From Tubiluchus corallicola (taxonomy: Eukaryota; Animalia; Priapulida), in NCBI GenBank assembly GCA_030141605.1, contig JAQGDQ010001029.1, forward strand, positions 5,202-69,201: 64,000 nt of DNA, written 5' to 3'. The notes beneath the pieces were generated by a model, which was not told the DNA's origin, made no database searches, and worked only from the letters and a program-made list of their open reading frames with translations. Every line of letters begins with the position of its first letter. Position 1 is the stretch's first letter. Both the position numbers and the translations under genes were made by a program. Of the stretch, positions 5,375 through 64,000 are shown piece by piece.

Positions 5375-6084
5375 GCAGTATGTTCGCATGAAGCAAAAAA
5401 ATGTTACCTCGGCGTGAGGCCCCCCTGGAGGGTGAGGCCCTAGGCAGTTGCCTAGTTTGCCTATGCTTAAGGCCGGCCCTGACAGGAGAGAACAGGGTCC
5501 CCAGATACCGAAGTCGGACAGCCTACAGTCTGCTGTTCACCATTAAGGTCCTTCATTGAAAGATAACAATTTGTGTACGAATCCCGTACAATTTTTAAAA
5601 TCAATTTTAAAACATTCACAATTCGCTTTTAAATTGCTTCTTCGTGGTTTCATGCTGGCATGTGTCTGGTAAGCGTAATTATGCATTAGAACTTCGTGAT
5701 TCTTCGCGGCTAAACTAGCTGACGGAGGAAACTCCAGCTGCAGGGTTTTCGCATGCGCAGTTACGCCACTGCTGTTCATACTGCAAAGGATAGGGTCCAT
5801 ATCGAGGTTTTTTGGAAAAAAAAACAAAAAAAGCGTTTGCATGTTCGCTTGATAGCTGTAATTTCCTTGCACATCGTGAAATAGAATAAAAGTTTTGAAT
5901 TTTTCCAGTTTTTGACTGAAAACTTCAAAGATTTGATGATGCTGAATAGTAGTTTGGAGTTAGATCAGGAGGTGGTGTGGTAGGAAGATATATAAATTTG
6001 TCAGAAAATCGTTAGCCGGCTAATAATTGACTAGCTACGTTTCTTTGGCAAAGTGGAAAATCAATACTTTTTTGTTTTTCACAG

Positions 6085-8390: not shown

Positions 8391-11079
8391 CTGTTCTTGT
8401 TATAAAGAATTTCAATATCAAAAAACTTATCAACAATCAATCATCAGACTTGTCAATAATCAATAATCAGTTCTGATATTAATTTGCTATTGGATAACAT
8501 CATTTTTATTACACAGTGCAGACTAAACTAATGCGCTCTGTAATGGGGTGAGGGCGAACAGTCGTGTGGTTGCTGTGTGTGATAAACGACTGAAGTTTAG
8601 TACGTAGGGGTTTACCAGTAAATGGATGGATGACCACCAGTTTCATCTGCTATATTACTGCCATAATTTATTGAGGGTGGATGTATACACACCCAAAGAC
8701 ACTGCTGCCGGTTCAGTAGTTCATCTTAGAGGAATGTAAACAATGGAAAAGAATATTGCTTGAAAATAAGTAAATATGTTATTGAAAAACTTTGTAAGAG
8801 CTTGTAATCATTCTTACACTCCCGATAACTTGTTTAATTTATTCTAAGCTAACACACAACATGCTGCTTGCATCAACGGCATCTTAGTTTGCTAGTAATT
8901 TGTAACATGTATTGATGCCCCATCAGTGCAAGCACCTGTTTCCACAAGCATATGTTGTTTTTGCTGGAAAAAGTGAGTGTGCCGAAATTTTGGTGATAAC
9001 AGAAATACAATTATAACACTAACATCAATTTTCTTCGAATACAACCGTGTTTCTCCACTCATTGGCAGTGTCTGCTCAATGAAGTCATCTGGCAAAACCA
9101 GAATCTTTATCAAGAAGAGACAGTGACGTGCTAGAAGTGTCTTAACTACGTTTGGATTTCTCGATGAAGATGAAGTCGTCTAGCTCACCAATTCACGTAC
9201 TGATCAGGTTCAGTGTGATACTTAGCTTTGATCCAAACATGTGATCAGCAGTGCTCTACTTGGCTTCTTCCCAAGCATTGGTGCTGTAGTAAGTGGAGAA
9301 TCATGAGTGGTAATTTCCAATCCATCTTAGCCAACGCTTCTCTATGACCCCACCCACTCTTTCTTAAATTACATAATACCTGATTTTAAATTTTCTTTGG
9401 CCATTTCATACCCAACATATTTTTATACAGATGTCTTATGAAGCAGTTGATTTCGTTTTTCGTTTGTGTACCGTTGACTGTCCACAGTTTAAATTACACC
9501 TATAAGATTGTACTCGTGATGACCAAATAACTTTTGCATTTTTCCAAAAAGTATGGCTTCCACGCTGTATTGTGTTGTTCTCTGTCTTGGACTCTTGGTG
9601 TCATCTTTTATTTTCAGACTGAAATTTCTCAGAGAGTTGGTTAAAAATAATGCATTTACCAAAATAACTTTGACGTCATTCTAGTGTACTATTGACGTAT
9701 TTGGTATAAATGACGCAAGATAATGGCGTTTCTATGGTTTTCTAGTTCGTTTCTTACAAGTTGTACAAACGTTGTTATGACAGTACGCTTACCAGAACTA
9801 GAAGATGGTGAATTCGAAAAAGGTTCAAATTCAAAATCGTCCTGTATATGAAGGCGAGGGTAGATAGATAGACAGTGCCAACCAATCAGAATCAGCCGAC
9901 GCCGTTGCCGTACGTAAACCGTTATGTTAGTTTTTGCAGTTTTGTCACTGTTAACCAAAGCTAAGACAGCAACCATACCTATTTCTGCATACCACTGGAA
10001 AAATTGCCTTTTGTTTTCAAGAAGATCTAATATAAAAATAAACCATAGATATACTGTGCTCAGTACTTTTGTACTCGCAACCATTTTATTATGTCAAATT
10101 TTTGTAGGCCTTGTGCAGATAGTACAATACTGAAAGGGCCCCTCTTTGAAGCCCTTTATTTGAAATATGGGACCCCCAACTATGCAAATGTTGCTAAAAT
10201 ATATCACAAGCAAAAAATGTTCAAGACGAGAGCGAGCAAATTAGAGTTTGCCTCCTCCTGTGGGACCCCATAATTTCATTAATCTAGGGGTCCCAAAAGG
10301 TCATGATCCGGCCCTGTTCATGCTAAAAATGACAGGGAAGCGACATCAGTAAAAACTGATGTTCACAAAGGCAAATGTGATGGACAAAGGTGTAAAAATC
10401 AGTCAAAAAACCTAAGAGAAACAGGTCAAGGATAACAAGATAATAGATAACGATGGGTTGAAGTCAAAAATTCCCAAATTAAAAGACAAAGGTGTTAAAG
10501 ACAAGCGGTAAAACGACACAGGTGAATAAGACTTGTAAAACTGAAAAAGCAATAATAAAAAAGCAAAGAAAAAAGTCGGTAAGTAAAAAACCAAATGAAG
10601 TAGAATGGGGTTCGATTCATAGAAACTACGCGGTCCGTATCCTTTGACCAGCAACTCTTGATAAAAGTTCTTGGCTTTTTTCCTCTTCGCAAATCTTTCG
10701 AGGACAAACCAAACGTGGCGTAAATCAGCCAACATAATTTTTCGAAAGATAACTAAAACCGAGGAGATAGAGGGACAAAATGAACACGTTTGTAGGGTCA
10801 AAGGTTACAGTGAAATACGTTTAACTGTGTCAATTTGTGTTCGAAATGCTTCAAACATTGATGTCGATGTTCATACGCTCTTTTGTGTTTTCTCTCGTCT
10901 TGATATGGAAACTGCTACCCTCACAGAAGTTGTTTCGTTTATTTGTGGCACGTAAGAAATGGTTAATAATGCAAGGCCAAACAGTGACTACTACACGGTC
11001 TATCAAAATAGACAACAAAGTTATAAAATACAGTGCAGTAGATTACTCCAGTACAATGCACTTTATTTTTCTATAGGTG

Positions 11080-11439
11080 ATGCCAGGCGCCACGTTTGAG
11101 GTGCTTATAGGTCTTCTGATCATTCATGGGATACTCCCAGCGTCGGAACCAAAAGTAGAGACAGGATCTCCTAACGAGAATCCCGGAATGGACTCCCTTT
11201 TTTCCTACTTTGTCGACGAAAATGAAGGTGGAAAGTGTTTCAAGCCGAGGACAGTGAGCGTATGGATGACCAACCGAGGGAAGGATTGTCGAAAGTGCGT
11301 GCAAGGTCCCAACGTGCGGTTTCTTCTAGGAGCAGAGGCGGCAGAAGAATCAATCGACAGGGGCGCGACGTTCAAGAAGTGTTGCGCTAATAACGAGTAT
11401 TACAGAACTTGCAAAATGTTATTGAAAATAAGCAAATGA
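11080..11439 (+). CDS. Secreted cysteine-rich protein, paralogue 3 (119 aa; signal peptide plus one 6-Cys domain)
   Basis: tttatttttctatag|GTGATG. Leader MPGATFEVLIGLLIIHGILPA shares LIGLLII with paralogue 2. LFSYFVDENEGGKCFK aligns to LFGYVFDDKSGAKCFK. RGKDCRKC...CCANNEYYRTC. Confidence 0.85.
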   Translation: MPGATFEVLIGLLIIHGILPASEPKVETGSPNENPGMDSLFSYFVDENEGGKCFKPRTVSVWMTNRGKDCRKCVQGPNVRFLLGAEAAEESIDRGATFKKCCANNEYYRTCKMLLKISK

Positions 11440-18769: not shown

Positions 18770-21476
18770 CTACGCCAATGAATATTTACTAAGTAAAAAT
18801 ATCTTGTATTGTTTGGTAGCTATTTGTAAAGAAGGAGAGGAAATGATTGTATTGGGTACACTATTCCACAAAATAACTCCACTGTGCTGTAAGGTATTTA
18901 AGCCATACGCTGTGTTAAATCGTGTTTGAAAATAGTGTCCCATACTTGAGGACCTAGTATAGTGAGAGTGAACATCTTTGATTAAGGTAAAGTAGTTAGT
19001 ATATAATTCAGGCAACTGCCGGTTATTATACTTATACATGAATTTAAATAATTCAAGATTATAAATATCATCTATTTTCAATAAACTAAGGTGTATGTAT
19101 GAAGATGTTGCATGGTCTCTGTAATTGGCAAAAGTCATGTATTTAACTATTTTATTCTGAACTGTTATTAGTGGTTGTAATAAGTATTTTTTTGTTTGCC
19201 ACCATGACAACACACAGTATTGGAGGTACGGATAGACTAATGCATGGTAGATCATTTTCAAAACAGGCAAATTAATAAAATGTCTTAATTTTGCAAAAAT
19301 ACCAGCTGTTTTATTTAGTTTTGTTGCTGTAGAGGATATATGGGTAGACCACTTCATGTTGTTGTCAATATGCAACCCAAGGTATTTTATACTACTACTT
19401 TGTGTTAAAATTATGTCGCCAATTTTGAGTTCGAAAGTGGAAGAGTCTTGTTGTGAAAGGTTCCTACTGATTAACATATACTTAGTTTTTGTGTAATTGA
19501 CAGTTAATTTATTTGCTTTCATCCAGTCATCAATCTTTTTTAGTTCGTTGTTAGTGCGATGTTGTAAAGTTGAAAGGTTATTAGATGTAAGGAAGAGACT
19601 TGTATCATCAGCGAAAAGACGAGTGTTAAAATTAGTAGCAAGAGGAAGATCATTGATATAGATCAGGAAAAGCAGCGGCCCAAGAGTTGATCCTTGAGGT
19701 ACACCACAGTTTATATCTAGCAAATCAGAGCATGTATTGTTAATAGTGGTGAACTGTTGTCGGTTAGTTAAATAAGATTTAAGGAGTTCCAAGACAGGGC
19801 CTCTGATGCCATAAAAATGTAATTTATGTAGTAGAATATCATGCTGGACTGTGTCAAAAGCTTTAGATAAATCTAAGAATATTGCACAAGTGAAAAGTTT
19901 TTTGTCTAAATTTAGAAGCATATTTTCAACAAATTCTGAAGTAGCTAACGAAGTGGAGTAAGTTTTGCGAAAACCAAACTGAAATTTTGTTAGTATGTTA
20001 CATGAAGTGAGAAAATTGTTAATGCGATTACAAATAATATTTTCAAAAATTTTTGAAACTGGTGACAGTAGAGAAATTGGACGATAATTTGATAGGTTGT
20101 TTGGCGAATCATTTTTATAAAGTGGTTTGACTTTAGCTACTTTTAGACAATTAGGAAAGGTTCCTTCAGAAACTGCCATATTAAACAATCGACAAAGAAC
20201 TGGGACTATTAAATCAGTTGCTAATTTGTAAAATTTGACCGGGACATTTTCTGGGCCAGGTGATTTATTTTCTTTAAGTTTATTAAGAGACAACAATATT
20301 TCAAGTTCAGAGATAGGATAAAAGAAGACAGATTTATCATTTGGAGCATTTAAGAAAGATTGGTAGGTCTTCAAAGTGGGTGGGATTTTATTGGCCAGAT
20401 TACTACCTACAGACTGGAAGAATTTATTAAATGCATTAGCAATAGAGAGATCGTCACTTGTGGTATGACCATTGTTATCTAAATAGGAAGGGGCAACTTG
20501 TGTTTTACTTTTAATTTTCAGTAGGCTATTAATCGTACTCCATTGCTTCTTAATATTATTTTTGTTTACAGCAAATAAATGGTCATAATATTCTCTTTTG
20601 GATTTTTGCTTAGCGTGATTTAGTTTATTTGAATAAGTCTTATAATAAGTCTTTTTGTAAAGCGAATTAGAAAGTTTGTGAGATTTATAGAGTTTGCTTC
20701 TAGTTCTGATTGATTTTAAAATTCCGGGTGTTATCCAGGGTTTTCGAAAGGATATTGTTTCTCTTTTACTAAGTGTTCGAATCGGGGCATGTTTATTAAG
20801 GGTGGTTTCAAATGATTCCAAGAAATTGGAAAAAGTATTATTTACATTAAGTTGACTATTGAAAATGTTAGAAAGTGAATGTCCCAAATCGCTCAGAAAA
20901 TTTGCAGGAATAAATCTTTTAGTATCTCTTATTTGTACTTGAGACTTACTTTTGCATGCATAGGAAGAATTAACAATTGCAAAGATAGGCAGATGGTCAG
21001 CCAGTTCATACTGAATGATGCCAGCAGTGATGGGATTTTGAAACTCATTAGTATAAATATGATCAATTAAGGTTTGTGAGTTGTTAGTAATGCGAGTTGG
21101 TTGAGTTATAACTGGATGAAACCTATTTGAGAACAACATATTTATGTAGTTGGCAACTGAAGAAATGTCTTCATGTTGAAGTAAATTAATATTTATGTCC
21201 CCGCAAATAAAAGCTGTCCTACCTGACGAATTGATAAAGTTTAAGATCTTTTCCATTTCTTCATTAAAGTGACTGACAGATTTGTTGGGGTGCCTGTACA
21301 CGACGCCAAATAATATAGGTGCTTTATTTCTTGATGTTTTTATCTCGACCCATATATCCTCTACAGCTATTCTGCTAACAGTGTGAGGTAAGTTGGATGT
21401 ATATTTTTCGCAGTTAAACTGAATTTCATTAATAACTTTATATTCAAGATTTTTTTTAATATATAGACCTACCCGT
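18770..21476 (-). CDS. LINE ORF2: apurinic-type endonuclease (N-terminally truncated) plus reverse transcriptase
   Basis: EN motifs GVVYRHP, GDININLL, TLIDHIY, ADHLPI. RT motifs NYRPISLL, FLDLSKAFDTV, GVPQGSTLGPLLF, LFADDT. No stops over about 900 codons. Confidence 0.92.
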
Positions 21477-21925
21477 TTATATATAGTTAATATACCCTTT
21501 AATATATAGTTTCCGTACAAGTATAAAGAGAGTATATATATTGAGTATTATCGATGACACTGAATGAAAATAGGTGCTGCAGTTCCGCAGTACCTATACA
21601 CGAGCCACCACTGGTTATGTCAAAAAAAGTTAATGCAGAAACGTTGTGGTCCTAAAAGATATTGCAAGTAGATTATCCATCCGGTTAAGTGCTGTTAGAA
21701 TGAGAAACATGAAATGCGGGATATGCTTTCTTCTACATAGGTGACTAATAAAAACACAGTAATGCAAGGAAACTGTAAACTAAACGAATGCACTTTATTA
21801 CTGAAATACACCAAACGCAACAAACTTCTAACATTGTGAAAACCGATTTTTAATATACTAAAAGTAAAAATGTAAATTATAAAGCAAAGTTAATAAGCTA
21901 ATCGTTAAAATAATGATGATCATAC

Positions 21926-51434: not shown

Positions 51435-52175
51435 AGTAGGATAGATGTTACACCTCTGGCCGATTTCCCGGGGGGGGTGGGGATTTCCCCGGGGGGGTGG
51501 GGAAAAACACCCCTAAAAAAGTGCGAAAATCCGGGAAAACCCCTAAAAAAGTGTGAAAACCCGTGTGAAAGTGCGCACGTGACCGAAATCGACGAAAAAG
51601 CGCGAAAAACAAAGAAAAACGAAGAAAAGGCGTGTGAAACGAGGTAAAAATTTTCCATTTTTTCCCTCCCGCATGGCTTCATTTGGATCGAATGACCTTG
51701 AACTCTAGGTCACGTGACCAAAGTTCATTGACCCCTGGCCCCTGGATGGCTTCTTTTTTTGACGCCCCATTTTAAACCGCGCGAAAGCGCGCGAAAGCGT
51801 GCGAAAGTGTGTGAAAGCGCGTGAAAGCGCGTGAAAGTGCGCGAAAGCGTGTGAAAGTGTGTGAAACGAGGTAAAAAGCGCCTCAAACGAAGAAAAAGGG
51901 AGAAGTGGAGTTCCCGCCGAGGACTAATTAGTGCTAATTGGCGCTAATTGGCGCTAATTGGGGAGCCCCTGCCACCCCTCCGCCGCGTGCAAACGTCCGT
52001 CCCGGGGGTCGGGGACACCCCCCTGCAACCCACCCCTCCGTCGCATGGAATCGTCCACTGCAGGCAATGAGGGAAATCTTTTTCCCGCCACTCGCGCAGT
52101 GCCGGCCCTTTTCCGCGACCACTTCTCTCTCTCGGGTGCCCTCCCTTTTCCGCGACCACTTCTCTCGCGGGTTTA
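51435..52175. repeat. Putative left terminal inverted repeat region with internal 10-bp repeats and G/C runs
   Basis: Non-coding and GC-rich. Nine GYGAAAGYGY-type units at 51781-51866; four CTAATT(A/G)G units at 51924-51961. The partner TIR is not in the window, so the inner boundary is unknown. Confidence 0.6.
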
Positions 52176-52186
52176 GATGTGTGTGT

Positions 52187-52335
52187 GTGTGGAGATTTAT
52201 TTCAAATGCCAAAGTTCGATAAATGCATTTTCACAAATCTTTTTTATTGATGGATTACAGGTGTGGAGATTTATTTGAAACGCCAAATTTCGATAAATGC
52301 ATTTTCACAAATCTTTTTTTATTGATGGATTACAA
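52187..52335 (-). terminator. Duplicated block of about 74 bp carrying poly(A) signals for the minus-strand unit
   Basis: Two copies of GTGTGGAGATTTATTT...TTTTTATTGATGGATTAC, each with two minus-strand AATAAA, 140-280 nt after the TBP-like stop. Confidence 0.6.
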
Positions 52336-52471
52336 AAAATTTTTTTTACATTTTTTATGCAAAATACATACGTGCTAAAACTAGATTATTATTATTATTA
52401 TGGTGACATGATAGTTCTACATTTTACGTTTTTTTCGCAAATTACACAAATTACGCAAAATTACAGTAAAA

Positions 52472-53056
52472 CTACACTAATGACGACGAGCGAGTACATG
52501 GATTGTCGTCGTCGATGTGATACAGACAAACGTTATTGTTGTTAAAAACGAATTCGTTAAATTTGCGGAAAACGCGAGAGAAATCCTCGACCTTTGTCCC
52601 GCCCATCATTATTATGCTTCCGGTGTGAAAAATGTTCAGAGTAATTTGCTCGCATTTGCAAGTTAGTTTGGGAAATAGTTCCACTTCGTAAAACACTTCT
52701 CTAAAAGAATGCGTCGAAGGACGAACGAGTTCTTCGTACAGTGCACCCAGTTTCAATCTGCAGTGAATTTTGGCTCTGGCGGTGATGGTGCGAATTGCGA
52801 TCCCGTCGGCGGGCGTCAGTCCGAGACCTTTCGAGAGTTCTTCGATCGCATTGCGTAGTGCTTTTTCCTCCGAAAAACCGTTGGCCACCACGGAGCCGGA
52901 GGCAAAAATCATCAGCGTCCTGCCCAGTCGCTTTAGCAGAACCATTTGCGGTTTCCTTTCGTAGCGTCTTCCGCCCGTTCTCCGCCGGAGTTCGTTCAGA
53001 TCGAAGCGCTGCGAGAACGAAGCAGTGGCGACGATGTTGACCGTTTGGACTGACAC
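52472..53056 (-). CDS. Polinton-encoded TATA-box-binding protein (TBP)-like protein (about 194 aa; no ATG, candidate GTG start)
   Basis: Both TBP repeats: VNIVATASFSQRFDLNEL (cf. QNIVSTVNLGCKLDLKTI), TLMIFASGSVVANG (TALIFSSGKMVCTG), YEVELFPKL (YEPELFPGL), LNIFHTGSIIMMG (LLIFVSGKVVLTG). Confidence 0.85.
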   Translation of the reverse strand: MSVQTVNIVATASFSQRFDLNELRRRTGGRRYERKPQMVLLKRLGRTLMIFASGSVVANGFSEEKALRNAIEELSKGLGLTPADGIAIRTITARAKIHCRLKLGALYEELVRPSTHSFREVFYEVELFPKLTCKCEQITLNIFHTGSIIMMGGTKVEDFSRVFRKFNEFVFNNNNVCLYHIDDDNPCTRSSSLV

Positions 53057-53508
53057 GTTAGAACGTAGTTGGCAATCGTTTCGGACGCCCGAACCGCTCT
53101 GCCTCGCCCGTTGCTCTGCCAACGTATGGCGGGCGGCGGGTGCTCGCTTTCCAAATCTTCTACGCGTATGACCACGCGATTTTTGGGGAGATGTTTTTTG
53201 ACGAAATCGTACATCTCTGCTCCCTTGACGTAGGTGATCCTGCCTCTGGTGGTCTGTCGTAGAATGTTTTCCAATTCTGCATACTCGATCATTCCCTCCT
53301 CCCACGAGATGCCGTGTATGTGTCTGATTAGGTAGTTGTAGGTGGATCGCTTGTGCTGGGGAACGCGATTCCAGGGGTGGGGCGGTTTGAAGGTGTAGTT
53401 GTGATATATGCCGGTCTCTATTTCGCGAATTACCAAATTTTTGACCAGGTATTCTTCTTTTCCGCACTGGAAGGCATCTATGGTGAGAACTATGCTCGAT
53501 TCAGACAT
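52996..53508 (-). CDS. Maverick-type DEDD/DnaQ-like exonuclease-fold protein, probably catalytically degenerate
   Basis: Matches the recalled Maverick accessory pattern LVK.L..HxYxFKPP.W..HGI.W..G...Y..L..IL...YVKG.E...EDL. First acidic motif is altered (TIDAF; KNL rather than KEL). Confidence 0.65.
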   Translation of the reverse strand: MSESSIVLTIDAFQCGKEEYLVKNLVIREIETGIYHNYTFKPPHPWNRVPQHKRSTYNYLIRHIHGISWEEGMIEYAELENILRQTTRGRITYVKGAEMYDFVKKHLPKNRVVIRVEDLESEHPPPAIRWQSNGRGRAVRASETIANYVLTCQSKRSTSSPLLRSRSASI

Positions 53509-53731
53509 CTGTGACGATGGGGGGTCCTTCTACGCCGTCGGCAACGAGTTTTCCTTCGATGACGATTTGCTTGTGATTGTTCACAAATTCCAGAGACTTG
53601 ATTTTTTCGAAGGTGTATTTTTTTATGACCTTGTTGGGGGCACTCTTGCGTGCGTTGGCGCGCTTGCCGCCCCGCGTCCCCGCTTGTTGTTGTTGCTTGC
53701 GAGGAACGGTGGTTAGAGGTTGTTTGAAATC
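53501..53731 (-). CDS. Small unknown Polinton protein, exon 2 (leader-spliced; 105 aa in total)
   Basis: No ATG of its own. Preceded by a strong acceptor (tataactattgttcttcttcttctcttgcag|GAT TTC AAA) in phase with the leader exon. Its stop overlaps the next ATG. Confidence 0.55.
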   Translation of the reverse strand, partial: DFKQPLTTVPRKQQQQAGTRGGKRANARKSAPNKVIKKYTFEKIKSLEFVNNHKQIVIEGKLVADGVEGPPIVTDV

Positions 53732-53785
53732 CTGCAAGAGAAGAAGAAGAACAATAGTTATAGTATTGTTGTTCGCTAACGACAA

Positions 53786-54799
53786 CTAGGCATTTTTGAT
53801 GAGCCATTCTTTCAGATTTCTAGGTTTTTTGGGGGCAGTGGGGGTGAGCACCATCGGCGGCGATGGAGGGGGCGTCGCGGAAATTACGAGTTTGTCTTCT
53901 TCTTTATCATCATCTTTCTCCTCTTCCTCCTCCTCCTCTCGAAAGATGTCCATTCGTGTCCCTCTCTCGCGTCTGCTTTTACACGGAGGGGCGGAGGTGC
54001 CGACGTCGACGACATTGCCGGCAGACTTCTTTCCGTCCAGTTTGTCCAGTTCCTCGCGTACCCGTCTTCTCGTATCTGCTCCTTTCAATATTCTGCGTCC
54101 CATTCTACCGATGATGACGCACTGTCCATTTAGCAGACTTCCATCCCTAATGGACACTCCCTCGATGCAGAGGAAACCTTGCCAAACTGTCATTCTACGA
54201 CGCGGCGACAATTGACATTCGTAGTATTCGTCGTCGTCCTCTATTTTGTCTATCTCCCCCTGTAGTTTTTCGTATTCTTCCAGATGGAGGTTGATGCCGG
54301 GTTTGGTCGGAACGAGCGTGGCGACGCCGTCGCTGTCCTCGTATTTCCTCTTCACTTTTTCGACTGCCCGTCTGAGACCTATGCTGGGATGCGTTGCCCA
54401 TTTGCTGATCAACACGTAGGTCTGCCCACACAGAAAGATGGCACCCGGATGTCGTTGACGTTGATACTTTGCCCTCGTCCAGTAGTGTGACATTTTCACG
54501 GCTATGATCATCCTATCGATTAATTCCGATTCCAGCAGTGCCTGTACGGCCTCCTGACTCAACTCGAAATTTTGCTCGGGAAAGATGAAGAGCGGTCTAG
54601 AGTTTGCTATCATGAAAGACGTTCTGGCAGACAGTTGTATTTCAAAATCCGTATAAGATATCTCCTCGTTCAAGGCAGTCAGTATTTCTTCTCGTTTACG
54701 TACGAGTTTGCCATACTCCATCACCGTCAAAGACGCGTGCTTCCCCCTAGTGAGTTTTTCGGTAGCGGGATCGTAGTTAGATCGTCGCCGAAAGTGAAC
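53786..54799 (-). CDS. Multi-PC4 (Sub1/PC4 ssDNA-binding coactivator-like) protein, exon 2 (366 aa with the leader)
   Basis: ttgaccttttattcgtag|GTT CAC extends the ORF in frame. PC4-like motifs VHFRRR...RGKHASLTVMEYGKL and IGLRR...PTKPGINLHLEEYEKL (cf. PGRKGISLNPEQWSQL). Acidic and Pro-rich tail. Confidence 0.7.
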   Translation of the reverse strand, partial: VHFRRRSNYDPATEKLTRGKHASLTVMEYGKLVRKREEILTALNEEISYTDFEIQLSARTSFMIANSRPLFIFPEQNFELSQEAVQALLESELIDRMIIAVKMSHYWTRAKYQRQRHPGAIFLCGQTYVLISKWATHPSIGLRRAVEKVKRKYEDSDGVATLVPTKPGINLHLEEYEKLQGEIDKIEDDDEYYECQLSPRRRMTVWQGFLCIEGVSIRDGSLLNGQCVIIGRMGRRILKGADTRRRVREELDKLDGKKSAGNVVDVGTSAPPCKSRRERGTRMDIFREEEEEEEKDDDKEEDKLVISATPPPSPPMVLTPTAPKKPRNLKEWLIKNA

Positions 54800-54922
54800 C
54801 TACGAATAAAAGGTCAAAAATTTTTTTAACACGCTCCTGCCCCCTGATGCTAAATAAAACAGGAAAAAAACAACGTTTCGGTATTCGAAATGCTAGAAAA
54901 ATAATAATGAACATTTACTCAC

Positions 54923-55009
54923 CTGATACACCTCGTCTAAGGATGAAAGCGATGTTGACAAATCGTGTGTCAGCGGATACACCAAGGCATCATTCTCCAT
55001 CATTAACAT
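54923..55009 (-). CDS. Shared 29-codon leader exon of the Polinton minus-strand unit
   Basis: MLMMENDALVYPLTHDLSTSLSSLDEVYQ ending in a perfect donor CAG|gtgagt, phase 0, downstream of a TATA box. Confidence 0.65.
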
Positions 55010-55097
55010 ATAGCGATGTTTTTTCGTCGTCTGCGGATGTATGTGCTATCGCTGTGTCGCTCGAGACACTTGTGTCATCCCCCCGTCAAAACACCCC

Positions 55098-55345
55098 ATT
55101 ATATAGCCGCTCTCTTCCGGTTGACGTCACCCAACGGTCGTTTGCCGTTAACAATAGCTCAAGCGTGAATGACGCAGCGTCTGTTCACTCTACCGTTTTC
55201 CCGCCAAACCGTCACGATGCGTCACACTACACGGCATCTATTGTGAAAAAAACACGCTGTTTGAACACGTTCGAGTGGGCTAACCGTTTTTTTTCGTATG
55301 CATTGCGGTATTTTTATTCTTATTTTGATACAAAATTTATAAAGG
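55098..55345. promoter_or_regulatory. Divergent promoter region between the two Polinton gene blocks
   Basis: Minus-strand TATATAAT at 55098-55105; ETS-type CCGGAAG at 55114-55120; palindromic CRE TGACGTCA at 55122-55129; further TGACGCA/TGCGTCA sites; plus-strand TATAAA at 55338-55343 before the ATPase. Confidence 0.6.
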
Positions 55346-55374
55346 AAGGTAGATTAATTTATTTGGTAATTACG

Positions 55375-56010
55375 ATGGATCGAATTTATGATGCGAGATT
55401 GAAATTTGGCAGCACCATGTTGGTGGCCGGACCCACTCGCGCCGGGAAAACCACTTTTGTAAAAAATTTACTCCTTCATCGGAACGTGTTGTTCGATGCT
55501 AAACCGGACAGGGTGTTGTGGATTTCGCAAACACCCCCTCCACTAGCCTCCTCTCGCGAAGAATTACAAGAAGTGGAGTACAGCGAGGACATAAATGTCG
55601 GAATACGTGCGGGAGATCTGGTGGTGGTAGACGACATGATGACGGAACTAGCCACCTCCAAACGACTGACTGACATGTTCACAAAGCTAGCACACCACAA
55701 ACCGTGTTTCGTGGTTTTCATCACGCAAAATCTTTTTCAACAGAGCAAAGAATCGAGAACGCGCAGTCTAAACACCCACTACTTGGTGTTATTCAAAAAT
55801 CCGCGCGACAAGATGCAGGTGGAAGTGTTGGGTAGACAGATGTATCCGGGTAAAACGAAATCTTTTAGGGAGGCTTTCGAGCGCGCCACCGCAGCACCCT
55901 TTTCTTACGTGCTATTCGATTTGCGTCAGGAAACCGACGATGCCATTCGCATGAGAAGTAACATATTTCCTCACGAAGTACCACAATTGGTTTTTCTTCC
56001 TCAAAAATGA
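55375..56010 (+). CDS. Polinton genome-packaging ATPase (A32/FtsK-like)
   Basis: Walker A GPTRAGKTT, Walker B LVVVDDMM, FITQNLF and SLNTHYLVLFKNPRD. The start is probably the ATG at 55375 rather than 54847. Confidence 0.92.
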   Translation: MDRIYDARLKFGSTMLVAGPTRAGKTTFVKNLLLHRNVLFDAKPDRVLWISQTPPPLASSREELQEVEYSEDINVGIRAGDLVVVDDMMTELATSKRLTDMFTKLAHHKPCFVVFITQNLFQQSKESRTRSLNTHYLVLFKNPRDKMQVEVLGRQMYPGKTKSFREAFERATAAPFSYVLFDLRQETDDAIRMRSNIFPHEVPQLVFLPQK

Positions 56011-56070
56011 GATAAGCAAAATGGTGCGCGTTGCATGCGACATAGAATTATTAACGACAACCGCAAAAAA

Positions 56071-56448
56071 ATGTCTCAAGCGCGCATTAGACGACACAGA
56101 CCTTTTCTCAAGCAACTCGCTCGTGCCAAACCGCGCGATAGGAGGGAGATGTTAAAGTGGGCCGATGCCGATGCGATTAATTTTTTGGCAGAATGCGCTC
56201 TCAACATACTACGCGGTAATGTGAAGTTGAAAACCAAACAGATAAAGGTATTGAGGGGACATCGCAATGTGCTGAGAAAATTGGCACGCGCCGGTTCCAC
56301 GTTGAAGGCCAGAAGACGTGCGCTAGTGCAAAAAGGTGGTATATTTCCAATCATACCCCTCTTGGCGGGCATATTTGGCGCCACTTCGGCTGCTGCTAGC
56401 GTAGCCAGAACGGTGAAGACATTCCGCGATAAGAAGAAAAAGAAATAA
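56071..56448 (+). CDS. Conserved small basic Polinton protein with an adenain-type site and a hydrophobic/amphipathic C-terminus
   Basis: ECALNILRGNV...LRKLA...QKGG|IFPIIPLLAGIFG pattern typical of the ORF that follows the ATPase in group-1-type elements. Confidence 0.75.
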   Translation: MSQARIRRHRPFLKQLARAKPRDRREMLKWADADAINFLAECALNILRGNVKLKTKQIKVLRGHRNVLRKLARAGSTLKARRRALVQKGGIFPIIPLLAGIFGATSAAASVARTVKTFRDKKKKK

Positions 56449-56449
56449 A

Positions 56450-57247
56450 ATGTATTCTCAGATGGTTTTACTACCGCTGGCAGAGTATAACAGGTTAAAA
56501 CATACGCGCCTCGTTCTAGACACGCCCGTCGAGCAGAAAACTGTAGAAATTCAACAGAAAATGGCGGAATTGGCAGCTCGAGGATTGCCACCCGATGTGG
56601 AAAATAAGATGAGAAGCGAATTGATGCAGGAGATCAAAGATTTGAAAAAACCCTCCTCCACGGGCGAAGATGACGATGGAACCCGACTGAAAGACACTCA
56701 AATAATCGAGGCATTACCCACCAAGTACAAGAGTAGGGGACAAAAAATGCTCTCCTTTTTGAAGGCCCATCGAACGCGTTGGGATGAAATGGGGCGTTTC
56801 GTGCACGAGGGACGCGCAATGAGTGGCACGCACCTGGTGGACTTGATAAATTTTGCTACAACTAGCGAGAAGATGACTCCCCCTCGCGGTTGGTCCGACT
56901 TTTATCGTCATCTCAAAGAAATAAGTGTGCCCATGACTCTATTGGGTAAAACGGCTAAGACAGAACTCGAGAAGGGTCAACAGCAACAACAGCAGCGCGA
57001 AAGGTTGGGACTGACGACACCCCCATCCTCTCTAGCGCATCGACGCGTGGTGGCCGATGACGAAGCGAGGACAGCGACACCGACACCACCACCACCACCA
57101 GCCCCTCTACCTTCTAATAAACGAACCACGCGAAAACGTGGACCTCAACAACAACAACAACAGCAACAACAGCATCCTCGTCGCCGACGTCGACGACAAT
57201 CCTCACCCATAGTTAGAGAATGGGTGAGACTGGAGACAGAAGATTAG
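56450..57247 (+). CDS. Conserved uncharacterised Polinton protein (PW-like)
   Basis: MVLLP start, LP..YK.RG..ML.FL, WDE.G, G.HLVDLI, PRGW..F...L.....P..LLG; low-complexity C-terminus. Confidence 0.7.
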   Translation: MYSQMVLLPLAEYNRLKHTRLVLDTPVEQKTVEIQQKMAELAARGLPPDVENKMRSELMQEIKDLKKPSSTGEDDDGTRLKDTQIIEALPTKYKSRGQKMLSFLKAHRTRWDEMGRFVHEGRAMSGTHLVDLINFATTSEKMTPPRGWSDFYRHLKEISVPMTLLGKTAKTELEKGQQQQQQRERLGLTTPPSSLAHRRVVADDEARTATPTPPPPPAPLPSNKRTTRKRGPQQQQQQQQQHPRRRRRRQSSPIVREWVRLETED

Positions 57248-58314
57248 CCGAAATCTACTACGATTTGCGTCATCCTGCCGGTTATGCTAGCGCACGTGCA
57301 TTGAAACGCGCCTCTGGCGACACGATGCGTCGCGTGCGCGAATGGTTGAGTGCACAATCCGCCTACACCCTCCACAGGGGTGCCAGACGTAGTAGATATG
57401 ACACTCGCCCGACTTTGACGCGCGGTATCGATTATCAATGGCAAGCCGATTTGGTAATTATGGACGCGCTATCCAAATATAACGATGGCTACAAATACAT
57501 GTTAACCGTGGTGGATTGTTTTAGTCGTTATGCCTGGGCGAGAGCTTTGAAGAGTAAAGGTGGACGCGAAACTGCCGAGGCTCTACGCTCCATATTCGAA
57601 GAGGAGGGGCGCGCGCCCCTCAAATTACACACGGACAAGGGTAAAGAATTTCAAAATAGACATGTACAAAAATTGTTGAAAGACTATGGCATATATTTTT
57701 TCACCACGGAAAGTGTCTACAAGGCGGCCCTGGTGGAACGTTTTAACAGAACTTTAAAATCGAGATGCTACAAAGTTTTCACCCATCGCAACACCCTGAG
57801 ATGGATAGATTTTCTCCAAGATCTGGTGTACGGATACAATGGTGCCACACATCGCACCATAGGAATGGCACCGCGCGAGGTGAATGCACGAAACGAGATG
57901 CTTTTGTGGAGAAAATTATATGCCAAAGGAAGGAGGCGAAGAAAGAAAGATTTAAGAACACCTTCGAAATTAGTGGTGGGGGATTTGGTGCGTCTTTCCA
58001 AAGTCAAGGGACGTTTCGAAAAGTCTTACTTTCCCAACTGGACGGAAGAACTGTTCACGGTTAGTGCGGTGTCCGAAGGTGACGATTTCGCCACTTGGCC
58101 GCCCGCTTACCGCATATCCGATCACACCGGCGAAGAAGTGCGCGGTATATTTTATCGTGAAGAATTACAGAAAGTGATCAAGACGGACGACGTTTATCGC
58201 GTGGAAAAAGTACTCAAAACCAAAGGTAGAGGAAGACATAAGCGTTTCTTTGTAAAATGGTTGGGTTATCCCACAGAGTTTGCCAGCTGGATAACTGCAG
58301 AAGATTTTGTGTAG
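57220..58314 (+). CDS. Retroviral-like (c-)integrase with C-terminal chromodomain
   Basis: YYD..HPAGY; DDE triad WQADL / LHTDKGKEF / VERFNRTLK; chromodomain YRVEKVL...FFVKWLGYP.EFASWI. Confidence 0.93.
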   Translation: MGETGDRRLAEIYYDLRHPAGYASARALKRASGDTMRRVREWLSAQSAYTLHRGARRSRYDTRPTLTRGIDYQWQADLVIMDALSKYNDGYKYMLTVVDCFSRYAWARALKSKGGRETAEALRSIFEEEGRAPLKLHTDKGKEFQNRHVQKLLKDYGIYFFTTESVYKAALVERFNRTLKSRCYKVFTHRNTLRWIDFLQDLVYGYNGATHRTIGMAPREVNARNEMLLWRKLYAKGRRRRKKDLRTPSKLVVGDLVRLSKVKGRFEKSYFPNWTEELFTVSAVSEGDDFATWPPAYRISDHTGEEVRGIFYREELQKVIKTDDVYRVEKVLKTKGRGRHKRFFVKWLGYPTEFASWITAEDFV

Positions 58315-58321
58315 AAAAAAC

Positions 58322-59104
58322 ATGATACCGGGTAGTTTTTCCGTGTTATTGCCCTCTAATGCCTCTCCCAAAGTGTATCCGGAGAACAGGCCGGGCGCCT
58401 TTCGCGTACAACTGCTCGATCCGCTAGAGCTGAAGGGAAACTGGGAAGTGGGTCTGACAGAAATAGTCTATCCGCGCTCATTCTACAATTACGAGGACAA
58501 CGAGTCGGTGGCCTTTATGACCCACGAGCGTGCCGTCAAGCTACCAGTGCTAACCGAATTTGCCGCACACTCCAAAAGGTTTAAACACATAGAGCTACCA
58601 AATGGACATTATAGCGATGCAAAAGAGCTGATGCACTACATAAATCAACAACTTCCCAAAAAGTTTTTCAACGTCACCTTTCACCCCATATCTAGACACT
58701 CCCACTGGGCGGTTAAGGGAGAACTTTCCACTCTGGTCTTACGTAAACCGGTCACCGACATGATGGGTTTTTGGAACTTACCTTCGGCGATACTCACCAT
58801 AGGTGAACACGAATCCCCACACCCCTGCAAAGTGGATAGAGGACAACAGACGTTATACATCTATCTAGATTGCATCGAGCACTCCGTCGTGGGTCACACT
58901 TCTGTACCTCTCTTGCGTGCAATAACCATTGCGCGACAGCATGGCGACACTGTCACTCACGAATTTCAGCGCATCTACTACCGCAAAGTTAACAAGAGTC
59001 AGATAAAAAGTTTGGAGGTGTATGTTTGTGACGACACTGGTAAAAAAGTGAACTTTCATTGGGGCCACATGATTTTGAATCTACACTTTAGACCATCATT
59101 GTAA
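58322..59104 (+). CDS. Minor capsid protein (penton, PX)
   Basis: F.VLLPSNAS...YPEN...FRVQL...LELKGNWEVGLTEIVYP and C-terminal YIYLDCIE..VVG....PLLR...LHFR. Confidence 0.85.
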   Translation: MIPGSFSVLLPSNASPKVYPENRPGAFRVQLLDPLELKGNWEVGLTEIVYPRSFYNYEDNESVAFMTHERAVKLPVLTEFAAHSKRFKHIELPNGHYSDAKELMHYINQQLPKKFFNVTFHPISRHSHWAVKGELSTLVLRKPVTDMMGFWNLPSAILTIGEHESPHPCKVDRGQQTLYIYLDCIEHSVVGHTSVPLLRAITIARQHGDTVTHEFQRIYYRKVNKSQIKSLEVYVCDDTGKKVNFHWGHMILNLHFRPSL

Positions 59105-59177
59105 CACCGTTGCAACACCGCTAATAACTAATAAGCAAAAAAAGACACCCGCATCAGAACAAATTTACAGAAAGAGG

Positions 59178-59570
59178 ATGGTGGCCAACAGCGATCCCTA
59201 TTACAGCTATTATAGCAAACCTCAGATCGGGGGTGTGCTACCCGTATATGCCGGTGCAGGCTTACAGTCTGGCAGTGGCTTGTTTAGCCTTATAGCTCGC
59301 GTTGCCATACCGCTAATACGAAAAATTGCCAGTGTGGCTAAACCTGCGGGACGGCTAGCAATGGGTGCCGCTAAAAATATAGCCAAGTCGACTGCTAAGA
59401 GAGCAGCCGGCGGTTTAAAAGATGCTCTAGCGCAAGAGATAAGCAAAACCGTGTTGAGTGCAAAAAGACGTAAAGCAAAACCCGCTCAGCGCCGACGACG
59501 TCAGACTGGTACTGGTAGAAGAACGAGAACAAAGGCAAAAAGAAGAACAAAGCGCGATATTTTTTCCTGA
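59178..59570 (+). CDS. Basic core/membrane-active protein (PZ-like)
   Basis: YY..QIGG.LPVYAG...QSGSGLF followed by an amphipathic helix; Arg/Lys-rich C-terminus with QTGTG, ending DIFS. Confidence 0.75.
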   Translation: MVANSDPYYSYYSKPQIGGVLPVYAGAGLQSGSGLFSLIARVAIPLIRKIASVAKPAGRLAMGAAKNIAKSTAKRAAGGLKDALAQEISKTVLSAKRRKAKPAQRRRRQTGTGRRTRTKAKRRTKRDIFS

Positions 59571-59619
59571 ATTAGTAATCGGATTGCATAAAGAGGTAGA
59601 GAAGAAAAAAAGAAGAACA

Positions 59620-60924
59620 ATGGAAACACTGGCGGCTAAAAGTGAATTGGATTTGTTCACAGAAATGCCCACTCAGGTGGCCATTTCCGAAGGACAATAC
59701 GTGGATTTTCATCCCATAAACACCTACACGGAGAATGTGACTAGTCCCATCGAGTTTCACATAATTGGTAGTTCTGATGAATACTTAGATTGCGACGATG
59801 TGCATCTAGTTTTAGATGTGCGCATGTTAACCGCAGCAGGTCAACCCATTAGAGTGGGTGCAGGGGTAGAAGATCCCCTTCCACATGTGGCACCAGTCAA
59901 TTTGCCCGCCACTTCCATGTTTTCGGATTGCGAAGTCATTTTGGGGAATACCCAAATACAGGGAGGCTCGCACGACTATGCCTATAGAGCTTACCTGCAA
60001 ACCTTATTGGAGTACGAACCTGACACAAAAGATACACAATTGATCATAGCAGGATGGCAACCTGACCCCAGTAACAATCGAATCGATCAACCGGATCAAA
60101 ACAATTCCATACAAGATAGAGCGCGCCCGTTGCGCGATGGCGCAACGCATCAATACGTCACTAAACTGTTTGTAGATTTCTTTAGACAACCGCGTTTTTT
60201 GTTGCCGGGCGTGGACTTGCGCATAAGGTTGATTAGACAGCGTGCAGACTGGTACATGATGAGCGCCTATCCGGATCGCGAAGTCTATTTGCACGTACAA
60301 AGAGCCGTCTTGTATGCACGACGCGTGCGCGTGATGCCAAGCGTGCTTAAAGCACACCTTGATGGTCTGAGTCGCTATAATGCCATCTACCCTTACAATA
60401 AAGTAGAAATGACCAGTTTCACCATTGGACAGGGAGCACAAAGCATCGTGAAAGAGGATCTGTTCTCGGGTCGCGTACCAAAACTTTGCTTATTCGGACT
60501 CGTGAGAAATGACGCTTATAACGGTTCGCGAGCACTTAGTCCATACAACTTTCAACATTTCAACATCAATCACGTCACCATGTACGTGGGCTCGGAAGAA
60601 ATGCCACATCGCACCTTTCACCCGAATTTCCCGAGTGGAATCGTAGGACGCGAGTTTGTTGCTCTTTATCAGGCCTTTAATCTGTTTGGTAAAGATAAAG
60701 GAATCATCACACCTACAGAATTTAAACGGGGTACGACGCTCTTTGGATTTAACCTATCTCCAGATCAAAGCCTGGTTGGACATCGCCAAGGTGATAAAGG
60801 CGGTCAAGTACGTATCGAATTGAAATTTGCGCAAGCATTACCACACACCGTAAATGTGGTGGTCATGGCAGTATTTGATGCCAAAATCGAGATAACGAAA
60901 TTACTTGACGTCATAACACTATAA
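59620..60924 (+). CDS. Major capsid protein (double jelly-roll, PY)
   Basis: KSELDLF...PTQ..I..G.Y....PI, PIEF.I.G..DEYLD, YAYRAYLQTLL, AYNG....SPYNFQHF, G.TLFGFNLSPD, G.VRIELKFA.ALP.TVNVVV. Confidence 0.9.
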   Translation: METLAAKSELDLFTEMPTQVAISEGQYVDFHPINTYTENVTSPIEFHIIGSSDEYLDCDDVHLVLDVRMLTAAGQPIRVGAGVEDPLPHVAPVNLPATSMFSDCEVILGNTQIQGGSHDYAYRAYLQTLLEYEPDTKDTQLIIAGWQPDPSNNRIDQPDQNNSIQDRARPLRDGATHQYVTKLFVDFFRQPRFLLPGVDLRIRLIRQRADWYMMSAYPDREVYLHVQRAVLYARRVRVMPSVLKAHLDGLSRYNAIYPYNKVEMTSFTIGQGAQSIVKEDLFSGRVPKLCLFGLVRNDAYNGSRALSPYNFQHFNINHVTMYVGSEEMPHRTFHPNFPSGIVGREFVALYQAFNLFGKDKGIITPTEFKRGTTLFGFNLSPDQSLVGHRQGDKGGQVRIELKFAQALPHTVNVVVMAVFDAKIEITKLLDVITL

Positions 60925-61541
60925 TGTTAACGTTAACAGTACTCGTGTCGACGACGGCATCGGCAATAGCTGCAGCAGCGACACCGTTTTTATCTATGGT
61001 TAGTTCTTCAAGGACGATGACAGGAATGAACACCCTTCAATTGGAAGACTTCATGCAAAAACGCGCCCCTCCAGCAGCGAAACATCAATTTCGAGGGGTT
61101 TATTCGTCTTCTGAATTACTGGAGAGTGTCACAGTGAATGAACTCCCTGCTAGCTATATTGTCAACACTCAACCCAGCAATTTACCGGGCGAACACTGGG
61201 TGGCGCTCTATTTAGAGACCTCTGGTCGTGGAGAGTTATTCGATTCCTACGGATTGGCACCCACCTATAGAATTAGGAAATTTTTAAATAAAAATTGTAG
61301 AGGGAAATGGACTTACAACACGAAAGCGTTACAATCACCCATCCTTCCTACTTGCGGAGCATACGCTTTATGGTTTTGTTGTAGACGACCTTATTACGAC
61401 TCTCTACAGCAGCTGGTGTGTAATTTCCAGCCATTGTTCCTAGACAGAGAAGTGGTGTTGATGAAGCATCTATTTTCCGTCGATGACGCTGATGATGAGG
61501 ATGATGATGATGATGATCGCTATAAACCGCATCGCCGTTGA
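60924..61541 (+). CDS. Adenain-like cysteine protease (core from the ATG at 61026)
   Basis: IVNT.P...PGEHWVA (His), FDSYG (Asp), LQS....TCGAYA (Gln, Cys): catalytic residues intact. Confidence 0.9.
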   Translation: MLTLTVLVSTTASAIAAAATPFLSMVSSSRTMTGMNTLQLEDFMQKRAPPAAKHQFRGVYSSSELLESVTVNELPASYIVNTQPSNLPGEHWVALYLETSGRGELFDSYGLAPTYRIRKFLNKNCRGKWTYNTKALQSPILPTCGAYALWFCCRRPYYDSLQQLVCNFQPLFLDREVVLMKHLFSVDDADDEDDDDDDRYKPHRR

Positions 61542-62049
61542 TGGTGACGGCGACGAGAACGACAGCGGCGACGACGACGATGATGATGATGATAATGATT
61601 GAGATGATGATTACAATGAATTTAATCACGGTGGCGACATCGTGCATGCTTACATTTGTGTACGTTTCACTAATCTCTGTTTGTATATATCCCCCCTTGG
61701 GGTTATGTGTTGGCAAAGTAAGGTCTCACTTGCTCCTTTTGATGCTGCATATAGCTCCCCCTTGGGGAGGCTTGTGCTCCCCCCTGGGGGGGTTATGTTC
61801 CCTTTTAAATTTTAATTTGATAATGCTTATTATTTTTGTATTAGTCTTTTTTTATTAATGTTATTTCTAAACACGGATGTGAATGCAAAAAAACAAATTC
61901 TTCAGACTGTAATATACATTGCACACTGCCAATGAAAGCTTTAGCCATATATATTGTTCAAACGTTGATATGCTGTACGCTAGCGTCATCTAGCAGTGAA
62001 TGCGTGGCTAGTTCGCATAATGGCACTACTTGTTCATACTTTCCAGCGA

Positions 62050-62340
62050 AATTAATGCATGACGGCGCTATCTGTTCATTGAAATTGTTGTTCTGTAATG
62101 CACGATGGCGCTACCTGTTCATTGAATGTGTTTTTGTATGCGTATTATAATACATTAGTTGAAAAATAAAAATTTTAGATTACATTTTTTAATGTTAAAT
62201 ACTTTCCAGGGAAATATAATGCTCGTATGTTGTTCTGTAATGCATGACGGCGGTAGCTGTTCATTGAATGTGTTTTGTATGCGTATTATAATACATTAGT
62301 GGAAAAAATAAAAATTTTAGATTACATTTTTAATGTTAAT
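62050..62340. repeat. Tandem duplication (period about 142 bp) in the convergent intergenic region
   Basis: TTGTTCTGTAATGCA...CTGTTCATTGAATGTG...AATAAAAATTTTAGATTACATTTTT occurs twice. Confidence 0.8.
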
Positions 62341-62529
62341 TTCTTTTCAAGCTTGGTGCATTTGTGAAAAATAAAAATTAAATATATAAAGCCATGTGAA
62401 AGAATAAAAATTATTTTTAAAACACTTTATTAGCAACAACAACACTTTTTAAAACAACTTATTAAAAAATACTTTAAAACATCATAAGTAACAACAATAC
62501 ACTCTTAACAACAATACAGTCTTTTTATG

Positions 62530-62790
62530 ACATGGGAATGGTTGCATACTATATTTAACAGCATCACCAACATGGGAATGATTGCATACTATATTTAACA
62601 GCATCACCAACATGGGAATGATGCGTCTACTGTAAAACGGTATTCACCGAAGCAGAAAAAATACGTGAACACTGTCACTTAACAGTATATTTAACAGCAT
62701 CAGCAACATGGGAATGATTGCATACTATATTTAACAGCATCACCAACATGGGAATGATTGCATACTATATTTAACAGCATCAGCAACAGC
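62530..62790. repeat. 40-bp tandem repeat (about 5 copies, one interrupted)
   Basis: CATGGGAATGATTGCATACTATATTTAACAGCATCACCAA units at about 62531, 62571, 62611, 62707 and 62747. Confidence 0.85.
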
Positions 62791-63047
62791 ATTAAAACAT
62801 CATTTACTAACAACAATACTTTAAAACATCATATAGTGGCTTCATACAATGATGTATTAGGTATAGAATGGAGGAGGTGGGATTGCAACAGACAAACTGT
62901 TACACATATAATGGGGGTATAGCATTTATCAATTAAACATGTTCATATATTGTGTTCAATTCACAATTTCAAACAGACTACAGACTGTTACATAAATACA
63001 ATATTTAGTCGGTTCGGACCGTGCCCCTCCCTCTAACATATTTGTTG

Positions 63048-64000
63048 TCATAGAATAACACTATCATCATCGTCATCATCATCAACATCAACATCATCAT
63101 CACAGATATTGACAACAGTTACGTTAGGAGGTCCATGAAAAGGTCGATTTTCGACGGGAGGAGCGACAGTAGAAACAAAAGGTTTCGTCTGGTCTACTAA
63201 ATAATGTCCGTATGGAACGCTGAAATTTTTTGACAGCCAGCATCTTTTATCATCAAAAAAAGATAGCGATCTTTTGGAAGAATGTTTAGTGTATATGTGA
63301 TGTCGTTGCGATGTGAAGCGAATTGTCTCGTGCGTCATTTCCACCTGCTCTGTAAAGGCACGCTCAAAATCTTCGTGAGTTATTTGTTTTGAAATTGTGC
63401 GCCTATCGACACCTTTGGCGCGCTTTTTGCTTTGTCGAAAATCAACGCTCTTCATGCTGTATAATTTGGGCTTAAGTAAAATCCATTGTTGGTGAAGCGA
63501 GCCTTGTGACTCATCTTTGAAACAACCTAAGCGTGCCCGATTTTCCTCCCGATAAAAAACGTGATCTTTAGGATAATTCGAGGTATCGATCACGTTTCCT
63601 TTCTGTAGAAAATGGGGGATTAAAATCTCGGGCACACTCAGATTTTTTACTTGGAGAAAAAATGAATCCGTGTCCGAACCGACAATTTTCACATCAGCTT
63701 CAGGAGATAAAATTTTCATTTCGTCATCACTGAATGTTTCGTAGCGAAGGCGATACATTATCAATTTAGAAAGGTCAAGAACGGTCTGACCTATATATAT
63801 TGGCCTATCTAAGAAAACGTTGGTTTTGCGCAGTCTGTGAGCACTCACAGTATTATTAAAAATGTTAAAATCTTGGTGGTCCGGTCGCCTCAAAAATTGT
63901 TCGCACGCTTTTTGACTAGTGGCCAATTTTAAAGAGCAACGTTTGCGAACGTTTTCCATACTTTTGCCAAATAAACTGTTATTGAACAGCTTAAAAAGAT
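63048..64000 (-). CDS. Protein-primed family B DNA polymerase (pPolB), C-terminal part; runs off the window
   Basis: Motif B KLFNNSLFGKSMENVRKR, RPIYIGQTVLDLSKL.MY, motif C GSDTDS, DTSNYP, LGCFKDE, KPKLYS, KRAKGV, DDKR. Confidence 0.93.
   Translation of the reverse strand, partial: LFKLFNNSLFGKSMENVRKRCSLKLATSQKACEQFLRRPDHQDFNIFNNTVSAHRLRKTNVFLDRPIYIGQTVLDLSKLIMYRLRYETFSDDEMKILSPEADVKIVGSDTDSFFLQVKNLSVPEILIPHFLQKGNVIDTSNYPKDHVFYREENRARLGCFKDESQGSLHQQWILLKPKLYSMKSVDFRQSKKRAKGVDRRTISKQITHEDFERAFTEQVEMTHETIRFTSQRHHIYTKHSSKRSLSFFDDKRCWLSKNFSVPYGHYLVDQTKPFVSTVAPPVENRPFHGPPNVTVVNICDDDVDVDDDDDDDSVIL

Follow-up and report, generated by a model that had tools for sequence, protein, structure and literature searches.

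The window analyzed here is a 64,000-nt stretch of Tubiluchus corallicola DNA. It includes a Polinton/Maverick element whose left end lies near 51434 (first letters AGTAG), GC content passing there from about 35% outside to 47–49% inside. Outside the element the DNA is that of an animal, where spliced genes for RPS13 and a fucosyltransferase-like protein are present. RPS13 occupies 21948-14780 (minus strand), and its intron 1 holds a 925-codon reverse-transcriptase-like ORF (18773-21547); the other gene (34802-25869, minus strand) has two exons and, judging from its motifs, presumably encodes an alpha-1,3-fucosyltransferase-like protein. Three related tandem ORFs on the plus strand (889-1572, 6031-7029, and 11077-11436), with signal-peptide-like starts and a cysteine-rich motif, and in one case a Gln-rich repeat, look like a secreted family.

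The core of the element is a module of eight continuous plus-strand ORFs, in keeping with the intronless core ORFs of Polintons. The integrase matches PF00665 (63.9 bits, cut-off 32.6) and carries a chromodomain, as expected for a retroviral-type integrase, while the ATPase (FtsK, E = 0.0097) and the protease (Peptidase_C5, E = 0.0071) fall below the Pfam cut-offs and are strongly matched by syntenic ORFs of other Polinton-like loci. The penton-like and capsid-like ORFs are putative, being named from synteny. With an ATPase, capsid-like proteins (putative, by synteny), and an adenain-like protease, the locus has the gene content of a Polinton/Maverick. The ORF at the right edge, which we assume to encode a pPolB from its motifs and from its matches to long ORFs of other Polinton-like loci, is matched over its C-terminal 316 codons by long ORFs in 13 of 112 ATPase-bearing loci; because the 3′ end of this gene enters from the right, the right end of the element lies beyond the window. 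In the 6.2 kb of the core plus strand, the best sense-strand acceptor and donor reach only 5.6 and 3.4 with a generic splice matrix, and the introns that we predict are in the accessory unit. Several minor features were also noted. The left terminal region (51435-52200), with 10-nt tandem repeats and two GCGGGAA sites, is probably a terminal inverted repeat, and an AT-rich repeat block (62043-62828) between the converging protease and pPolB genes likely serves as the poly(A) region of both. ATAAG motifs (mostly ATAAGCAAA) at 56012, 56429, 59131, and 59439 (plus strand) lie ahead of several plus-strand genes and could be a late-promoter box. Antisense to the penton-like and capsid-like genes (58781-60019, minus strand), strong donor-like (58781, 59994) and acceptor-like sites occur, which may be due to chance, the sense strands being purine-rich.

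Between the left end and this core lies a 2.7-kb accessory unit on the minus strand (table 1). The original prediction had described its TATA box, its 29-codon exon with a phase-0 donor, and a shared poly(A) block, and all of these are present. The putative CRE, ETS-type, and E2F-type sites, absent from the original prediction, stand within 110 nt of the TATA box, and together with five TGACG half-sites they all fall in about 140 nt around it, a motif set that would suit a host-driven early promoter. The codon use of the 29-codon exon, hereafter the leader, exceeds that of 98% of 3,588 stop-free off-frame windows, the leader and ORF2 having been left out of the training set. At the other end of the unit, AATAAA occurs at 52323, 52275, 52248, and 52201 (minus strand), and neither AATAAA nor ATTAAA is found between 55075 and 52330 (2.7 expected, P = 0.06). 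The leader, the PC4-like exon, ORF2, and the TBP-like ORF were all seen to share a single genomic frame.

Table 1. Features of the Polinton element and of its accessory unit (positions in the window).
Feature	Position	Strand	Remarks
E2F-type site	55197..55208	-	Upstream of the TATA box; 2 matches in the window versus 0.09 expected
CRE and ETS-type site	55114..55129	-	Perfect CRE palindrome (55129-55122) and adjoining ETS-type site (55120-55114)
TATA box	55098..55105	-	TATATAAT; the range 52100 to 55500 has a single other TATAWAW on the minus strand
Leader exon (predicted)	54923..55009	-	29 codons (87 nt), coding; ends CAG/GTGAGT, phase-0 donor at 54922
Intron 1 (predicted)	54800..54922	-	123 nt, 33% GC, 42% T; branch-point-like TTGAC at -15; competing AGs at 54892, 54849, 54843
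PC4-like exon	53786..54799	-	About four tandem PC4-like repeats, acidic proline-rich tail; no N-terminal half of repeat 1; leader brings it to 366 aa
Spacer	53732..53785	-	54 nt; holds the strongest acceptor of the window
ORF2	53501..53731	-	76 codons, no ATG; basic then beta-rich; 105 aa with leader
Maelstrom/DEDD-like nuclease-fold ORF	52996..53508	-	170 aa; own ATG overlaps the ORF2 stop; weak acceptor right before the ATG
TBP-like ORF	52472..53065	-	Domain start near 53065, first in-frame ATG at 52945; absent from the original prediction
Weak candidate acceptors into TBP-like ORF	53113, 53323	-	Phase 0
Candidate acceptor into TBP-like ORF	53049	-	Phase 1; paired only with weak donor 54918
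Poly(A) block	52187..52335	-	Four AATAAA in or beside two 59-nt direct repeats
Divergent core module	55375..61541	+	Packaging ATPase, two small ORFs, integrase-chromodomain, penton-like, small ORF, major capsid-like, adenain-like protease
Protein-primed DNA polymerase B (pPolB-like)	63048..63998	-	C-terminal part, 316 codons; runs past the window edge

Splice sites were scored with a generic matrix that was not trained on this DNA; on this scale, host sites of the flank placed by protein homology range from 4.8 to 9.7 (four acceptors) and from 2.1 to 8.8 (four donors). The leader donor scores 8.1, the top value among 135 GTs in the unit (runner-up 2.1), and only two of the 1,510 GTs in the element score as high, the other being antisense within the penton-like gene. 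A ladder of three acceptors in phase 0 with this donor had been proposed, and 54799, 53731, and 53508 are indeed all in phase 0, with introns of 123, 1191, and 1414 nt, respectively. Two of its rungs are strong: at 14.1, 53731 outscores every other AG in the window (6,900 on the two strands), and 54799 (8.1) ranks third of 157 in the unit. The third, 53508, is weak (−2.1, rank 18 of 157). Only 53731, 54849, and 54799 reach 8.1 or more among the 1,258 AGs of the element, and all three are inside the two T-rich gaps of the unit. Such gaps inflate acceptor scores, and 17 AGs in the 51 kb of flank attain 8.1; both points would favor a decaying copy that has lost start codons and displays splice-like motifs by chance, as would the TBP-like ORF, without a start where distant relatives have one. 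However, no interruption breaks any of the 12 ORFs of the element or the pPolB end, the donor, phase, and codon use are mutually consistent, and an in-phase acceptor as strong as 53731 arose in none of 8,000 composition-preserving shuffles of the 54-nt spacer, the strength of 54799 being matched in 46 of 8,000 shuffles of intron 1. We give little credence to decay.

The acceptor at 54799 doubles as an in-frame TAG directly before the PC4-like ORF, whose first ATG is codon 27. Repeat 3 of this ORF matches PF02229 at 16.9 bits (cut-off 25; E = 0.0046), repeat 1 is undetected by Pfam, and the atlas leads at 0.86 to PC4-bearing clusters. Its sole relative among 1.84 billion representatives (P0001; 42% identity over 259 residues) is identical at 11 of the 24 residues that precede the first Met and has an Ile in place of that Met; the PC4-like coding region is therefore conserved upstream of this position and lacks a start of its own. 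The P0001 sequence itself opens with a Met at the equivalent of residue 3 of the PC4-like ORF; this may be a genuine start in P0001, which would count against the need for a leader, or the choice of a gene caller. When compared with six other repeats, residues 1–40 of the ORF look like the second half of a PC4-like domain (P about 0.01); the ORF therefore lacks the first half, and the leader has a length suited to this missing part of repeat 1. The original prediction went further in suggesting that the leader appears to complete the domain. In its favor, ungapped comparison with eight PC4 N-terminal halves placed the exact register best of 8, with 387 of 20,000 shuffles and 190 of 11,073 element 21-mers scoring as well (P about 0.02), and ranked the leader second of 92 candidate phase-0 donors, whereas a gapped test against six N-terminal halves was not significant (0.32 of background and 0.22 of shuffles). 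That the leader completes repeat 1 is plausible, the tests being equivocal. Single-sequence AlphaFold2 models were unusable (pLDDT 36 and 37), and folding the leader and exon 2 as two chains gave an uninformative score of 0.01. A competing acceptor absent from the original prediction, 54849, scores slightly higher (9.1) than 54799 and would lead to a stop after seven codons, and such a non-productive outcome at a stronger-scoring AG counts against the leader model; 54849 is without a branch-point-like motif, in contrast to 54799 with its TTGAC.

ORF2, the second target, was described as having no ATG of its own, and we confirmed that none occurs from stop to stop; its codon use equals the median of true element genes and is more coding-like than in any of 516 stop-free off-frame windows. 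Neither Pfam nor PHROGs contains a match to it. An ATG-bearing alternative frame over ORF2 was considered as the actual gene and rejected, its codon use being non-coding. The only strong donor upstream of ORF2 is that of the leader, and their junction would put half a PC4 domain on the ORF2 N-terminus, which makes no obvious structural sense and counts against the model. ORF2 would be spared this half-domain if it were an alternative last exon of an ordinary two-exon PC4-like gene, reached from a weak donor within the PC4 exon and replacing an acidic tail by a basic one, with no ladder involved. Phase-0 GTs do exist in this exon at 53887 and at 54061, the latter being the second best of the unit (2.1) and lying just after repeat 4, and one host donor scores just 2.1. 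Nevertheless, the donors in the PC4 exon are at least 6 units below 54922, and 54061 sits in coding sequence and may be incidental, all of which leads us to regard this arrangement as unlikely.

Several features together make a shared leader likely: two ORFs lack a usable ATG, the signals are strong, codon use looks coding, and the one relative shows conservation ahead of the first Met. The DNA itself displays the splice signals and the phases in which they stand, the lack of ATGs, and a poly(A) block that is the only one of the unit. The reading that we favor, with a probability of roughly 0.6 and predicted from sequence, is that one leader is spliced to two alternative acceptors, 54799 and 53731. 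In this scheme, a single TATA promoter would direct one transcript of a host RNA-polymerase-II early unit, the 29-codon first exon would supply a start codon to at least two downstream exons via alternative 3′ splice sites, and splicing to 54799 would yield a 366-aa tandem PC4-like nucleic-acid-binding protein, that to 53731 a 105-aa basic protein. We infer both that splicing occurs and that the unit is early. The proposal of a single unit with alternative 3′ splice choice is hence supported in part: as far as sequence goes, it is well supported for the leader, 54799, and 53731, in view of the signals, the ATG-less ORFs, the codon use, and P0001, and is only suggestive for 53508. If the unit is spliced as predicted, ORF-based annotation would miss or truncate Polinton proteins: ORF2 would be invisible, and the PC4-like protein would be deprived of its N-terminus.

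The third acceptor as a leader target is suggestive, given that its pyrimidine tract is weak and is preceded within 21 nt by two AGs, all within the ORF2 coding sequence. In its favor, a YAG abutting an ATG is rare: only 3 of the 153 ATG triplets within genes have one, and none of the eight plus-strand gene starts does. The nuclease-fold ORF that follows resembles unnamed eukaryotic clusters of 155–181 aa (0.95–0.96) and Maelstrom (0.86), and had no match in a word-indexed protein search, nor had the PC4-like ORF. Two distant relatives begin with a Met at the equivalent position, so the nuclease-fold ORF needs no leader. We see somewhat less than an even chance that it is reached via 53508, and a similar one that it is reached by a restart at its own ATG after the end of ORF2. 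A CAG directly followed by ATG, as at 53508, is also the pattern expected if the unit were an operon whose acceptors receive a spliced leader of the host in trans. But a usable ATG is lacking in both ORF2 and the PC4 exon, and only a spliced leader ending in AUG, which is of the flatworm type, would work for them; moreover, a cis donor is present, in phase with a coding-like exon. Trans-splicing thus seems improbable. As for a restart, the ORF2/nuclease overlap consists of the same AUGucUGA octamer as in the calicivirus RHDV, according to passages in PMC3542737 and PMC6393290. It differs in that the UGGGA motif, expected 40–90 nt upstream of the stop in a TURBS, is absent from the 110 nt upstream of the overlap, and in that start/stop overlaps are also present elsewhere in the element. 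The fold of this upstream sequence is not unusual (z = 0.37).

A fourth gene of the unit encodes a TBP-like protein with two TBP repeats (PF00352, 80.6 bits, cut-off 22.9; 17 PDB TBP sequences at E ≤ 1e-5). Its first in-frame ATG comes about 40 codons into the domain; three distant TBP-like relatives, by contrast, open with a Met that precedes the first strand by a few residues. A close relative (P0002; 58%) is likewise called from the homologous internal Met, which weakly suggests that the missing start is not peculiar to this copy. A further splice, recoding or read-through, a non-AUG start, and a 5′ break in this copy are candidate explanations of how this ORF is, or was, expressed. An acceptor at 53008 (4.3, phase 0) was set aside since it would remove the first TBP strand, and the nuclease frame contains no canonical slippery heptamer. 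The frame common to ORF2 and the TBP-like ORF has one TGA and then no further stop over 147 codons, a stretch that runs under the nuclease ORF (53500-53060, minus strand). This open frame was examined as an overprinted gene (P = 0.003 and 0.0006 under two nulls) and rejected as unproven, because the TBP, integrase, and ATPase genes display a like stop depletion and its codon use is not coding-like. It is possible, though less likely than not, that the 29-codon exon starts all four proteins, TBP being reached via a fourth, distal acceptor. If this were true, the choice of 3′ splice site would time the viral TBP and the switch to late genes, amounting to an adenovirus-grade splicing programme in a Polinton.

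Adenovirus E4 is oriented inward-to-end at the genome terminus and has one poly(A) region, ATF-type promoter sites, and a non-coding leader. It is the closest analogue of the unit in mode of action. The unit resembles it in its terminal inward-to-end orientation, its single poly(A) region, and its ATF-type promoter sites, and differs in that the Polinton leader is predicted to be coding, with the start codon coming from it. By sequence alone, a single promoter and a single poly(A) region can be recognized, as in an E4-type unit. The likeness would extend to splicing, as a passage in PMC7851563 describes a common 5′ leader exon of E4 joined to different 3′ splice sites, an arrangement that is here predicted. 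No ORF matched an E4 protein in Pfam; we would view this as a Polinton early unit that is like adenovirus E4 but has a coding leader. In the adomavirus late unit, as outlined in part of bioRxiv 10.1101/341131, acceptors immediately before ATGs are fed by a common leader, much as proposed for 53508, but the leader there has three exons and serves virion genes, whereas here it has one coding exon and serves regulatory-type genes. If the prediction is correct, integrating relatives of adenoviruses would likewise use alternative 3′ splicing of this style, driven by a host early promoter.

Among Polintons/Mavericks (adintoviruses), the locus is typical in its core gene set and in the variable region between the left end and the core, and TBP-like genes are labelled in related viruses. 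Polintons are annotated as plain ORF sets. Vertebrate Mavericks are reported as intronless in a passage of PMC8097293, and nematode Mavericks, in a passage of bioRxiv 10.1101/2022.07.12.499685, as having core genes that are free of introns, with intron-bearing cargo lying close to the left repeat. Since descriptions of Polintons give their core genes as intron-free, a shared spliced leader was unexpected. Unlike such cargo, the splice signals here appear to belong to accessory genes of the element itself, with Polinton-type relatives, and not to recent host cargo. The passages on animal elements in these two sources and in PMC8502044 describe no alternative splicing; the part of PMC8502044 concerned labels a TBP gene and contains neither "splic" nor "PC4". 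In protist Polinton-like viruses, both group I introns and introners have been described, according to passages in PMC12220804 and PMC12166617, and PMC10748475 had nothing on point. In the open-access papers and preprint texts searched, we found no Polinton described with a leader that several alternative acceptors share, and almost nothing published on Polinton transcription.

Sister DNA was sought in viral contigs, metagenomes, and genomes by scans with the capsid (MCP), TBP, PC4-like, and integrase sequences and with a PC4 alignment, and none was found. An ATPase pattern had no match in viral contigs. It retrieved 16 loci from genomes and 112 from metagenomes, the latter from 5 of 64 collection parts and out of an estimated total of about 1,600; a close cassette was absent from all 128 of these ATPase-bearing loci. 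Protein relatives were limited to P0001 for the PC4-like ORF and P0002 for the TBP-like ORF, and profile searches of Rfam, PHROGs, and PDB gave weak matches or none. Distant Polinton-like loci provided 14 accessory ORFs (PC4-like, TBP-like, nuclease-like, and neighbors) for comparison, and near their first ATGs no acceptor scores above 3.0; the splice design, if real, is therefore lineage-specific. Two observations were made in passing at other loci: a distant Polinton TBP-like gene (L117:2446-2997, minus strand) has an acceptor-like CAG one base 5′ of its ATG (score 3.0), and in another Polinton-like locus, a Bcl-2-like ORF (L013:6081-6602, minus strand; PF00452, E = 8e-7) lies upstream of the ATPase.
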